This document shows, one piece after another, positions 23,998 through 28,051 of a stretch of DNA of 30,878 bases (its first letter is position 1; every line of letters begins with the position of its first letter). The stretch is taken from the NCBI GenBank assembly GCA_037447435.1, contig JBBIGR010000052.1, positions 1-30,878 of the forward strand. Reading direction: 5' to 3'. The notes below the pieces were generated by a model that saw only the letters and a program-made list of their open reading frames with translations, was not told the origin of the DNA and searched no databases. A program made the position numbers and the translations under genes. Source of the stretch: Fibrobacteria bacterium. Lineage in GTDB: Bacteria; Fibrobacterota; Chitinivibrionia; Chitinivibrionales; FEN-1185.

Positions 23998-24309
23998 GTG
24001 GATAAACTTAAAGGATTTCAAAAACAGTTTCTTAAGGGGCTTGCCCATAGCATGAAGCCCGTGATATTTATCGGCCAAAACGGCCTGGCCCCGAGCGTAA
24101 TGAAAGCCATAGCCGACGCCTTGAATCAGCACGAACTCATCAAACTGAAATTTCTTGACATAAAAGAGAAGGAACGGAAACAGGAAATGATTCAATCCAT
24201 CGAAAAAGAATCCGCCGCCGAAATGATCGGAATGATCGGGCATGTTGCGATATTTTTCAGGCAAAACCCGGATGTTGACAAAAGAAAGATACTCATCCCG
24301 AAGCGATAA
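23998..24309 (+). CDS. yhbY: YhbY family (CRM domain) RNA-binding protein
   Basis: LKGLAHSMKPVIFIGQNGL, ALNQHELIKLK and IGHVAIFFR; GTG start after AAGGAG. Confidence 0.92.
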   Translation: MDKLKGFQKQFLKGLAHSMKPVIFIGQNGLAPSVMKAIADALNQHELIKLKFLDIKEKERKQEMIQSIEKESAAEMIGMIGHVAIFFRQNPDVDKRKILIPKR

Positions 24310-24315
24310 ATCCCC

Positions 24316-24711
24316 ATGTTCAATTTTGCAATTTCATCACAAGGGCTGCTTATTTCCACAGGAATCGCCTTAAACCTTTTAGGCATTGTTTATTTGATAC
24401 AAATTAAGAGCATTGCAAAAGGGTTCAAATTCATTTTAACAAGCCACAAATACCTGTTTACCATGGGCCTTTCGGGTATAGGGTTGTTTTGCATTTTCAT
24501 CGGTACGGCGGTTGAAACGTGCGCAATTATCAACCCCTACAGCCCTGTCAGCAAAGGGATGTTTTTCCTATGTGCCGCAATGCTTGTTTTGCTCGGTATC
24601 CTGGTGGGCTCAAGCGGCGGAAAAAGCGACTTCGTCATTTTTAAAATCGGCGCTGTTGCAAAAATCGCGGCAGCAATGCTGATGATTGCTGCCGTCGCTT
24701 CATCACATTGA
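24316..24711 (+). CDS. Hypothetical four-helix membrane protein
   Basis: Four hydrophobic segments; starts 6 nt after yhbY. Confidence 0.65.
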   Translation: MFNFAISSQGLLISTGIALNLLGIVYLIQIKSIAKGFKFILTSHKYLFTMGLSGIGLFCIFIGTAVETCAIINPYSPVSKGMFFLCAAMLVLLGILVGSSGGKSDFVIFKIGAVAKIAAAMLMIAAVASSH

Positions 24712-25917
24712 TCCCCGTACTAGTACCGTTGCGAGCCGGGCAAGCCCTCTGTCCTTTTCCTCGTCGCTCGATTGCGTGAAATTCAACCGGAGAAACGATT
24801 CGCCGCCGCCATTGGCAAAAAACGCCGCGCCGTCGGCAAAGGCCACGCCGCGCGACACGCATTGCCGCAACAACAGGGACGCGGTAATATCGGGCCTATT
24901 GAACTTTGTCCAGAAAAACATCCCTCCCTCGGGCTTTTGCCAGGTGCATAAACCGTCCAAATGCCTATGCATACAGCGGTCCATGATGTCTCTTTTTTGC
25001 CGGTATACCTCGCGCACTTTTTCCAAATGCGCGTCAAGGTCCATGCGTTTTAAAACCTCCAGCACGAGCAATTGTGCAAATCTGCTTGTGCAAAGGTCCG
25101 CCCCTTGCTTTGCAGTAATCATATGACGCATCGCTTTCGATTTTGTCCAAACCCATCCCAATCGAAACCCCGGCGCAATCATTTTTGAAAACGTTCCCAA
25201 CAACATGCAATTATCAACGCCATACGCGCAAACGGGTTTATCGGGTTTTTCGCCGTAATACAATTGCCCGTAAGGATCGTCCTAAACAAGCATTGTCCCG
25301 AATCTGTTCAGGACTGCAGCGGTTTCAAAACGTCGCTGTTTTGAATAGCATATCCCCGTGGGGTTTTGAAATGTCGGGACCGTATAAAAAAATGTCGCCA
25401 TTTTGCTGCTGCAATGCCGTGTCAAATGGTCCACATTCGCGCCATCGCCATCCATTGCAACTTCAAAATACGCCGGCTCAAATGCGGAAAACGCCTGCAG
25501 CGCGGCCAAATAGGTGGGCCTCTCCACTATGACAAGCGACGCAGGATCAATAAACACCTTGCCTATCAGATCCAACGCCTGTTGCGACCCGTTGACAATC
25601 ATTATTTCTTCGGGCAACGCCGCGATGCCGAGTTTTGTAAGCCATGTTGCCGCTACGAATTCCCGCAAGTCATTCTCACCTTCGCTTTGGCCGTATAGAA
25701 ACGCACGCGTTCCGTGTTTCGCCACGACGTTCTCAAACGCCCCGGCAATGATATCGAGCGGTATGCACGAATCGTCCGGCACGCCGCCGCCGAACGATAT
25801 GAGCTCGTTAGTTGTGTTGAGCGATAGGATTTCTCTCACGCTGGAACGCGGCATTCCTTGCACGCGCTTTGCTAAACGATATGCTGTGGGGATGGATTGT
25901 GGTTCACGTGTTTTCAT
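24703..25917 (-). pseudogene. PLP-dependent class I/II aminotransferase (LysN/ARO8-like) with an in-frame amber stop at 25282-25284
   Basis: ISFGGGVPD, NGSQQALDL, PTYLAALQAF, YTVPTFQNPTG, LV*DDPYG, GTFSK (PLP lysine), PGFRLGW, PEGGMFFW and LRLNF. ORFs 25282..25980 and 24703..25263 are in the same frame. Confidence 0.9.
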
Positions 25918-26047
25918 GATAGGGCCTCGATGAAAATAAAAGATATCTTCCATTAGTCGATAATACGACAAAGTCAACAAACAGGTTTACTGCAATACCG
26001 CGGGCTGCTGCGAACATCATACGAACTCCTTGAATGAGGTGAAAATT

Positions 26048-26083
26048 AAAAAAAAAGGCCTCCCGGTTTTACCCGGAAGGCCT
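26048..26083 (-). terminator. Intrinsic terminator of the attenuator upstream of the aminotransferase
   Basis: Minus strand AGGCCTTCCGG-GTAAAA-CCGGGAGGCCT running into a T9 tract. Confidence 0.88.
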
Positions 26084-26107
26084 CATATAATCGATGTACT
26101 GTATGGC

Positions 26108-26230
26108 TTATTCCGGGTATTTTCCTTTGGAAACCGCAGCGTCAATAATGGCTGCAACGGTCCACAACGCAGCCGCAGCCGGCGCATTAAGGGTTGTAAA
26201 ACGGGAAAATGCCAGGAAATTTTTATTCAT
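26108..26230 (-). CDS. Putative Ala-rich attenuator leader peptide (40 aa)
   Basis: Own translation: MNKNFLAFSRFTTLNAPAAAALWTVAAIIDAAVSKGKYPE*. It has 10 Ala, 9 of them in codons 16-32, and its stop lies 24 nt before the terminator stem. Confidence 0.75.
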   Translation of the reverse strand: MNKNFLAFSRFTTLNAPAAAALWTVAAIIDAAVSKGKYPE

Positions 26231-26236
26231 GTTTAA

Positions 26237-26266
26237 AATATAAACGCCATGCATTTGTTTTGTCAA
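26237..26266 (-). promoter_or_regulatory. Sigma-70 promoter giving a leaderless transcript of the leader peptide
   Basis: TTGACA (26266-26261)-N18-TATATT (26242-26237), then 6 nt, then the ATG at 26230. Confidence 0.7.
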
Positions 26267-26476
26267 TAAAAAAGTTCCAGATATTCCGATGCTTTAAAAA
26301 TTCTGCCGAAATTGCCCGAGTCTCTGCCTGCGGCAATAAACAAAATGATGTGGCATATGCAAACCTGGAATACTATAATTAAAAATACGCCGGAAAAAAA
26401 TATCGATTCGACAACCACAGGGTTTCCTAACCCTGTGTTGTCGTCCGGAAATCACAGTCAGCTTCGAAAGTGCACC

Positions 26477-28051
26477 GTGTTTTCAGAAAACGACAAGACA
26501 AAAAAGCAAATCGCGGAGCTCGAAGAAAAAATCGCGCGCCAAACCCAGGCTATCGGCGGTTATCGCGATCAATTGCTGAAGCTTACCGACCACAAATCGG
26601 AACGCGATCTTTATTCGGAACTTGCCGTTGTTTTCGCAAAAGAAACGGTAATCGACGACGTTTATAAAAAAACCATCGACGCTTTATCGCAACACATCAA
26701 AGCCACTTATTTCGGCGTATTCGTTCTTGACGGAAAAAACGACACGTTTGAATTCCGGCATGGCAAGGGATACAACGCCCAATCCATGCCGGAAATCCCC
26801 TATATCGGCAGTCTTATGGGACAATGTCTTTTTCGAAGGGAAATTTTGTGGGAGCCGGCTTTCGCCAAACGGCCGGGGTTCATGCAATTAAATCAGGATC
26901 CGCTCGAAAACAATGTGCTTTGCGTGCCGCTGATACTGCTTGGCATCGAAACCGCTGTACTTCGATGCGCGAATATCGATCCCGTCATCATCGACAAAAC
27001 AAAAACAATCATGCGGACGATTTCCCAGTTGCTCTGTTCTTCCCTCGAAAGGCTGCTTTTGCAATCAAAAAGCGAATGGACGCTTCGGAGCCTGGACATC
27101 AGTTTTTCCATAGCCCGATTGCTTCAGGACACTTTCGACAAACAGGAAATAACAAAACGGATCTGTGCGGAAGTCCCTCGGCTTTACGAATGCGTCGGAT
27201 GCGTCTTGGCAATGAAGGATGAGCAAGGAATTCCATCGACTGTCGCGAAGTGGCCCGATACCTTTGTTCTGGCAGGTAACGAAAAATCCGAGGCGATTTA
27301 CATTCGAAATCTTTTGCAGGCGTACCCGAACGGAAACGTTCTTATTGCCAACATACACCGCGACGACCATCGCTGGTCGTGGTCCAATCCAAAAGTAAAG
27401 TCAATTTGCATGGCGCCGATCAAGATAGCCAATAAGGTCCAAGGCGTATTGATCGCCGTCGGTCCGGCCAACACCGCATATGAGCACCCGCATGAAAATC
27501 TGCTCGGCATCGTTGCGTCTCAAACATCAATGACCCTAGAACGGGCCTCCTATTTTCAAAAACAGGAAGACCATGCGCGTTGCGACAGCCTAACCGGATT
27601 GTTCAATCGCCGAATATTCCAGGAATGCCTTCAGGATGAAATCAACCGCGTTAAACGGTATGGAAGCGCGCTTTCATTGGTCATGCTCGATATCGATCAT
27701 TTCAAAAAATTCAATGACACGTACGGCCACCCTGTCGGCGACGAAATCATCAAAATGGTTAGCCGCTGCATCAAGTCGTTGATTCGTACGACGGATCGGG
27801 CGTTTCGATATGGCGGCGAGGAATTCGCGATTTTACTTCCGGAAACCGCTCCCGGAAACGGCTATACGCTCAGCGAACGGCTCCGCTTGGCAATCACCGC
27901 CGATAAAACCGTAAAGGCGCTTTCCGTAACCATCAGCAGCGGGATAACCGGGTATTTGGAGACAGACACGCTCGAATCTTTTGTGAAGAGAAGCGACACA
28001 TGCCTGTATAGCGCAAAAGAATCCGGGCGCAACAAGGTAATAATCGGTTGA
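26477..28051 (+). CDS. Diguanylate cyclase with a coiled coil, two GAF domains and a GGDEF domain
   Basis: DSLTGLFNRR, DIDHFKKFNDTYGHPVGD, I-site RTTD, RYGGEEF and AKESGRN; two GAF-like segments (LCVPL, ICMAPI). The start is uncertain: the GTG at 26477 was chosen, but the frame is open from 26312. Confidence 0.9.
   Translation: MFSENDKTKKQIAELEEKIARQTQAIGGYRDQLLKLTDHKSERDLYSELAVVFAKETVIDDVYKKTIDALSQHIKATYFGVFVLDGKNDTFEFRHGKGYNAQSMPEIPYIGSLMGQCLFRREILWEPAFAKRPGFMQLNQDPLENNVLCVPLILLGIETAVLRCANIDPVIIDKTKTIMRTISQLLCSSLERLLLQSKSEWTLRSLDISFSIARLLQDTFDKQEITKRICAEVPRLYECVGCVLAMKDEQGIPSTVAKWPDTFVLAGNEKSEAIYIRNLLQAYPNGNVLIANIHRDDHRWSWSNPKVKSICMAPIKIANKVQGVLIAVGPANTAYEHPHENLLGIVASQTSMTLERASYFQKQEDHARCDSLTGLFNRRIFQECLQDEINRVKRYGSALSLVMLDIDHFKKFNDTYGHPVGDEIIKMVSRCIKSLIRTTDRAFRYGGEEFAILLPETAPGNGYTLSERLRLAITADKTVKALSVTISSGITGYLETDTLESFVKRSDTCLYSAKESGRNKVIIG

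Follow-up and report, generated by a model that had tools for sequence, protein, structure and literature searches.

In the enterobacterial trp, his, thr, leu, ilv, and phe attenuators, a short upstream open reading frame (uORF) containing codons for the cognate amino acid is followed by an antiterminator that the ribosome can mask and by a terminator. An effect of alanine on the attenuation of Escherichia coli ilvBN was reportedly described in a 1984 paper. In the accessible part of a 2013 survey, the attenuator amino acids listed are His, Leu, Thr, Trp, Ile/Val, and Phe (PMC3766115). According to the accessible portions of the respective papers, the leaders of ilvB from Mycobacterium tuberculosis (PMC13236596) and ilvD from Staphylococcus aureus (PMC5794164) resemble the locus described here: a short uORF with cognate codons, a ribosome that masks the antiterminator at the stop codon, and an intrinsic terminator. 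These leaders and the trp/his/thr/leu/ilv/phe attenuators differed from it in amino acid and target, and in the 1:2 hairpin, which was inconsistent here. With regard to alanine, the closest system is mycobacterial whiB7, the uORF of which is Ala-enriched and feeds back on alanine aminotransferase ("Ala leader" in the authors' term; accessible part of bioRxiv 10.1101/2023.06.02.543512). From that part, the likeness consisted of an Ala-enriched uORF, an antiterminator/terminator switch, and feedback on a (presumed) alanine-forming aminotransferase, whereas the whiB7 uORF is longer, senses broadly, and acts via a transcription factor on aspC. The leaders studied here (31-48 codons) had a compact Ala run, lay directly on the enzyme gene, probably start translation leaderless, and were followed by a second uORF. 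A first-pass annotation of this locus had noted that alanine is absent from the textbook list of attenuator amino acids, while allowing for earlier computational predictions; an Ala-tuned uORF attenuator has been published for whiB7, and, as far as the accessible part of that preprint goes, the present leader is therefore not the first alanine attenuator known.

The window, i.e., the whole stretch of DNA that was analyzed (30,878 nucleotides, from a Fibrobacteria bacterium), contained the following features:

26237..26266, minus strand: sigma-70-like promoter (-35, 26266-26261; -10, 26242-26237)
26108..26230, minus strand: uORF1, a leader peptide ORF of 40 codons (a uORF with an Ala run in 13/13 branch loci, see below)
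26135..26185, minus strand: sensing codons, nine Ala in codons 16-32 (each of the four Ala codons occurs among 11 loci)
26111..26119, minus strand: antiterminator 5' strand, the last three sense codons of uORF1 (by folding)
26070..26078, minus strand: shared switch segment, the top of the terminator left arm and the loop (by folding)
26048..26084, minus strand: intrinsic terminator, 12-bp stem and nine U (by folding; compensatory change in 6/13 stem pairs among 11 loci)
26026..26031, minus strand: Shine-Dalgarno sequence of uORF2 (an SD-like word precedes uORF2 in 11 loci)
25904..26020, minus strand: uORF2, 38 codons, with a 14-nt overlap onto the start of the aminotransferase (13/13 branch loci)
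25925..25928, minus strand: weak Shine-Dalgarno sequence of the aminotransferase, within uORF2 (read by eye)
24703..25917, minus strand: interrupted gene (404 codons) for a class I PLP aminotransferase that belongs to the LysN/Aro8/KAT-II (aminoadipate) clade
25282..25284, minus strand: in-frame TAG at codon 212, where a Glu is nearly invariant, upstream of the catalytic Lys

All coordinates of the first-pass annotation were reproduced on the minus strand. The promoter-like site TTGACA-18-TATATT (26266-26237) was the best of nine hits in 24000-28000, with 11/12 matches (shuffles yielded 5.1 hits), and the ATG at 26230 was located 6 nt downstream of the -10 hexamer. The 40-codon ORF (26230-26108) contained ten Ala codons in all, nine of which fell in codons 16-32; at least nine Ala per 17 codons occurred in 21 of 593,340 non-overlapping windows in the six frames of the whole genome. 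The complementarity between 26119-26111 and 26078-26070 was exact, and the terminator had a 12-bp stem followed by nine T at 26056-26048. The antiterminator and terminator folds, with energies of -17.4 kcal/mol (z, -3.3) and -24.4 kcal/mol (z, -5.9), respectively, were each equaled by 0/200 shuffles. On the other hand, the pause hairpin suggested within the sensing codons (26185-26135) was unsupported: 150/200 shuffles folded as well (z, +0.72). The 1:2 pause/protector hairpin of the four-segment trp/his-type attenuator was accordingly not found at this locus, and none was consistent across 11 loci.

In a genome-wide scan for a uORF followed by a terminator, 36 of 881 terminator-like sites were kept, and the uORF1 locus ranked first; the ilvB leader of this genome, with the same geometry and spacing, was also recovered. 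Searches against Rfam gave no hit in the window at the gathering score; in 19 related loci, no leader family was matched. A further candidate attenuator was observed at G000:C7:55064-55290 (L248:365-590, plus strand): a 35-codon uORF, counted from the second ATG, with His, Trp, and Ala near its end and complementarity in its final codons; a strong terminator was located 56 nt beyond the stop. The downstream gene, judged from its N-terminus, is presumably an EamA/DMT transporter. Next to uORF1, a GGDEF diguanylate cyclase gene was divergently arranged (26312-28051, plus strand), and a promoter-like site at 26350-26379 suggested that the listed TTG lies upstream of the true start of this gene. 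At the other end, a gene similar to yhbY and a hydrophobic ORF of 131 aa (23998-24711, plus strand) were both convergent on the aminotransferase gene; the latter ORF had no NCBIfam match and overlapped the 3' end of the aminotransferase gene by 9 nt. A selenocysteine tRNA was also encoded in the genome.

Orthologous loci formed a branch of 13: nine Fibrobacterota-type loci (eight genomic and one metagenome) and four sister loci (L039 from Lentisphaerae, L040 from Verrucomicrobiota, L223, and L247). The Ala-run leader, the antiterminator segment in its final codons, and the terminator hairpin were found in 13/13. In the Fibrobacterota-type loci, this layout was kept in 9/9 at 53-60% protein identity, with leader sequences that were otherwise divergent, and uORF1 consisted of 31-40 codons in 9/9. 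The same -10 hexamer preceded the leader ATG by 6 nt in 8/9 and by 8 nt in 1/9, and none of the nine had a Shine-Dalgarno sequence before this ATG; these features suggest a leaderless start of uORF1. In the three sister loci with enough upstream sequence, the ATG was further from the promoter. The distance from the stop codon to the U-tract was 49-56 nt in 12/13 branch loci; the intrinsic terminator between the uORF and the gene, a feature of attenuators, lacked its U-tract in the remaining one (L040). Covariation, which the first-pass annotation had proposed as a check of the terminator/antiterminator pairing, was found in the terminator as compensatory changes in 6/13 stem pairs across 11 loci. 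The antiterminator helix, the core of which was nearly invariant, showed no covariation beyond that of shuffles in an alignment with at least two misregistered rows: 142/500 shuffles were as high in cells paired and 155/500 in score. A close orthologue was absent from 5/5 same-genus and 7/7 same-family genomes, leaving no close-range comparison.

Ala accounted for 74/220 of the last 20 codons in 11 loci, compared with a background of 8.4%; enrichment of a short uORF in a single amino acid, another feature of attenuators, was thus present. That all four Ala codons are used points to selection on the amino acid rather than on the bases. The branched-chain co-sensing by uORF1 that had also been suggested appeared to be weak: Ile, Val, and Leu numbered 24, 20, and 8 in the same codons (11, 9, and 4% vs. 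7.0, 6.9, and 8.5% in the background, respectively). A leader of this composition may instead sense a general slow-down of translation or a ligand of the nascent peptide, the Ala/hydrophobic stretch being an arrest motif. The whiB7 uORF, according to the accessible part of the preprint, is induced by translation inhibitors as well as by many kinds of starvation (bioRxiv 10.1101/2023.06.02.543512), and many of the present leaders end in Pro-Asp/Glu. However, these last residues were explained by the bases of the antiterminator, the peptide was unconserved beyond its Ala content, and the target is an enzyme for amino acids; we consider arrest quite improbable.

The two folds were mutually exclusive, and their balance depended on the ribosome. 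In a ribosome walk along the leader, the probability of antiterminator pairing was 0.54-1.00 when the ribosome was placed 8-20 codons ahead of the stop, and not more than 0.16 in the last two ribosome positions, in 11/11 loci; the values at this locus were 0.98 (ribosome at the control codons) and at most 0.03 (near the stop). In silico, a ribosome at the control codons therefore left the antiterminator free, and one at the stop masked it, as in known attenuators. Compared with windows of the same locus, the antiterminator duplex was exceptional in 7/11 loci (fraction, 0.026 or less) and ordinary in 4/11 (0.12-0.20). Once the whole terminator was transcribed, it won at equilibrium at any ribosome position (P of at least 0.93), and the switch must therefore be kinetic, i.e., co-transcriptional. 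Since the antiterminator also formed without a ribosome in 8/11 loci, a three-segment design fits better than the four-segment trp design. These folds (8/11) also predict that loss of the uORF start would raise expression, as is the case for whiB7 in the accessible part of its description.

The equilibrium strength of the terminator may also be read in another way: uORF1 may be a gene for a small protein with its own terminator, the aminotransferase may be transcribed separately, and uORF2 may encode another small hydrophobic protein. A weak promoter-like site (9/12) was located after the terminator (26045-26016), and uORF2 has a hydrophobic start and a basic end, similar to a small membrane protein. 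However, the basic end of uORF2 is encoded by the Shine-Dalgarno sequence of the enzyme, the spacing between stop and terminator was fixed, the complementarity was placed at the stop codon, and the arrangement was strictly linked to a single enzyme clade in loci that are otherwise unrelated. Separate genes at this locus thus appear to be highly improbable. Apart from compensatory change in the antiterminator helix, for which shuffles were as high on the partly misregistered alignment, the testable defining features of a leader-peptide attenuator were found in silico, and we are highly confident that the locus is a ribosome-mediated transcription attenuator of this class. The conservation in 13/13 loci and the folding with ribosome masking supported both the attenuator and alanine as its main codon signal, as the first-pass annotation had proposed; that alanine is the main signal in the cell is likely.

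The attenuator would operate as follows. Transcription would start at or beside the ATG at 26230, and uORF1 would be translated from a leaderless mRNA. When alanine is plentiful, a ribosome at the last codons would cover 26119-26111, and the terminator would halt RNA polymerase near position 26050. Under a shortage of Ala-tRNA, the ribosome would wait at codons 16-32, and the antiterminator strand would capture the top of the terminator left arm as it emerges, such that polymerase reads on. The folding part of this switch was reproduced in silico, and its kinetics are our proposal.

A second uORF (26020-25904), which the first-pass annotation had not noticed, was found with its own Shine-Dalgarno sequence after the terminator. 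It comprised 38-41 codons in the nine Fibrobacterota-type loci, was in the -1 frame, and ended inside the enzyme gene. The detector found uORF2 in 13/13 branch loci and in 1/197 other loci. Its overlap with the enzyme gene was 14 nt in ten loci, 11 nt in one, and 20 nt in two (two loci were assigned by eye); the first -1-frame stop occurred at 14 in 46/1170 genes of the genome, and the branch loci are related and hence do not form an independent test. Over 11 loci, Ala made up 26% and Ile 15% of codons 2-21; at this locus, Ala accounted for 4/20. No RNA switch over the enzyme's ribosome-binding site in uORF2 was found, as judged by a consistent change in accessibility across 11 loci.

Overlapping uORFs may act by translational coupling or occlusion, both of which are known, and the accessible part of the report on Sinorhizobium uORFs (PMC13285730) describes a similar overlap with the main start, with coupling or occlusion of the ribosome-binding site; uORF2 likewise has its own Shine-Dalgarno sequence. 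That part reports no sensing of amino acids, whereas uORF2 was Ala-rich and followed an attenuator. The mycobacterial polycysteine sORFs (accessible part of bioRxiv 10.1101/834739) are likewise leaderless sensing uORFs; however, they act on translation via an RNA duplex over the ribosome-binding site, whereas uORF1 would act on a terminator. Occlusion relieved by stalling would agree in direction with the attenuator, and translational coupling would have the opposite direction. As a conserved, Ala-rich part of the device after the terminator, uORF2 probably adds a translational layer. Separately, beyond the terminator of the Val/Ile/Leu-rich ilvB leader of this genome (G000:C14:73142-72770, L249, minus strand), a second uORF containing an Ile run was found, together with a further hairpin with a T-rich tail; this may be a tandem attenuator.

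The aminotransferase was nearest, in both sequence and fold, to the LysN/Aro8/KAT-II class I aminotransferases: Pyrococcus PH0207, Thermococcus MsAT, and Thermus LysN, and also KAT-II. An orthologue (P0002) aligned with the nearest structures, which are broad-specificity LysN/KAT-II enzymes, at TM-scores of 0.86-0.88 and 34% identity. Databases label the subfamily as "2-aminoadipate transaminase"; in spite of the likeness in fold and clade to LysN, PH0207, MsAT, and KAT-II, the regulators pointed to Ala/Val and not lysine. The N-terminal GntR DNA-binding domain of MocR/GabR was not found in the 404 residues, and the MocR profiles matched only from positions 91-139 on. Membership in the AvtA family (NCBIfam PRK09440) was not supported either (85 and 73 bits against cut-offs of 402 and 467, respectively). 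E. coli AvtA, which converts valine and pyruvate to alanine, is placed in the aminoadipate clade in the accessible part of PMC9309667; the present enzyme belonged to the same clade, yet scored below the AvtA cut-off.

The gene contained an in-frame TAG (25284-25282), which the first-pass annotation had only hinted at by the words "repaired enzyme". The same TAG was present in a second assembly contig (run X1; depth, 7.65), which may derive from the same DNA source and is not independent. Read-through was rejected: there was no CUA tRNA among 43 and no PylS over the cut-off, and, while TAG ended 399/2439 long ORFs, an open frame followed in 49/399, with no marked excess over TAA (139/1269). Because of its presence in the second assembly and the absence of any sign of recoding, the copy is most likely a recent pseudogene, and the switch in this genome would control a broken gene.

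Close homologues carried the source name Chitinispirillaceae, and the subfamily was found in 8/81 genomes of the order and 8/296 of the phylum; no member was found within the same genus or family. An AlaA-like gene was present elsewhere in this genome, in 70/81 genomes of the order, and in 7/8 carriers of the subfamily; replacement of AlaA by the present enzyme was rejected on the basis of this coexistence. No alanine dehydrogenase exceeded the cut-off in 5/5 genomes.

The detector was run over 210 distinct LysN-like loci and gave 34 hits (L134 was dropped as weak, and L040 was added by eye). In a FastTree tree of 208 rows, all 34 leader-bearing rows fell in one clade of 102 rows (SH support, 100), compared with 0/106 rows outside. 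In a Bacteroidota branch, 20/23 rows had Val/Ala-rich leaders and terminators, and the three misses had 0, 17, and 162 nt of upstream sequence. Leader units were in tandem in 15 of these 20 by the detector, and apparently by eye in the other five. Tandem Val/Ala leader/terminator units were observed in this branch at L043, L046, L049, L053, L057, L059, L124, L172, L194, and L231-L245; those scanned had no Rfam match. T-boxes were found in 3 of 20 clade loci scanned, all from Bacillota and with the specifier GUA (valine):

L041:2188-2444, valine T-box before a LysN-like aminotransferase
L050:2172-2427, valine T-box before a LysN-like aminotransferase
L060:2111-2364, valine T-box before a LysN-like aminotransferase

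The three shared an insert of approximately 30 nt after stem II A/B. At L041, valS follows, and the T-box may therefore serve valS; unrelated genes follow at L050 and L060. The clade gene at L131 was located between leuB and ilvC, and a valS-like fragment adjoined the gene at L102, as did valS that at L041. Two further elements were observed before clade aminotransferases: a Val-rich leader and terminator outside the Bacteroidota branch (L193:30-210; its sister L102 is just behind a valS-like gene), and a promoter, a structured GC-rich leader, a terminator, and an overlapping uORF (L123:2060-2460) with no Rfam hit, possibly an undescribed RNA element. In samples of 301 genomes each around G296 and G299, there were six and three hits, respectively, indicating that the clade is sparse; two alignment scans for relatives gave, among the matches listed, mostly distant ones.

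The valine T-boxes, the ilv/leu/valS neighbors, the Val-rich Bacteroidota leaders, and Ile as 15% of uORF2 codons 2-21 may be taken to indicate that a branched-chain aminotransferase is controlled by a mixed gauge of Ala, Val, and Ile, alanine being only one input. On the other hand, Ala was enriched four-fold in uORF1 of the 11 loci, with Val and Ile near the background and Leu below it, and IlvE-family genes were present in 5/5 genomes tested; we regard a mixed gauge as unlikely and retain alanine as the main input. From its regulators and neighbors, the clade points to a valine:pyruvate (alanine-forming) transaminase, which would explain Ala leaders, Val/Ala leaders, and Val T-boxes in three phyla. 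Most clade members lacked these regulators, and the relatives of the enzyme are promiscuous. The first-pass reading of an alanine-forming transaminase is thus plausible, with valine as the partner substrate pointed to by the wider clade, and we lean slightly toward a valine:pyruvate or other alanine-forming activity. The enzyme would then most likely move amino groups between valine and pyruvate, making alanine here and serving valine synthesis in relatives.

For hisS, T-boxes and leader peptides are known to replace one another, according to the accessible part of PMC2965389. A two-tier alanine gauge, in which a leaderless Ala attenuator is followed by an Ala-sensing uORF2 that blocks the enzyme start unless ribosomes stall, with the clade as a mis-annotated valine:pyruvate transaminase family that swaps its control across phyla between this device, tandem Val/Ala attenuators, and valine T-boxes, is a tentative idea. 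The combination of an alanyl-tRNA attenuator, a uORF2 layer, and a valine:pyruvate enzyme that is a pseudogene here is, as a whole, fairly likely. We found no literature on this leader, uORF2, or this clade, and supplements and subscription papers may hold predictions; the accessible parts of PMC2965389, PMC3766115, PMC2494555, PMC6449708, and the GapMind preprint do not mention this leader or clade.

The mechanism class is a textbook one, and the copy in the window controls a broken gene; nevertheless, the attenuator is real, conserved, and most likely alanine-tuned. Alanine control by a leader peptide is known from accessible papers only indirectly (whiB7), and a compact leader directly on an enzyme gene offers a clean, small test system, intact versions of which occur in culturable-type lineages (Pedobacter, Cytophaga, and Clostridium loci). 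From the regulators, a testable prediction of the substrates also follows for a clade that is now labeled as 2-aminoadipate transaminase. The conserved uORF2 could be a new way to stack translational control on attenuation, and the two-tier gauge, if true, would represent overlapping-uORF logic in a bacterium.
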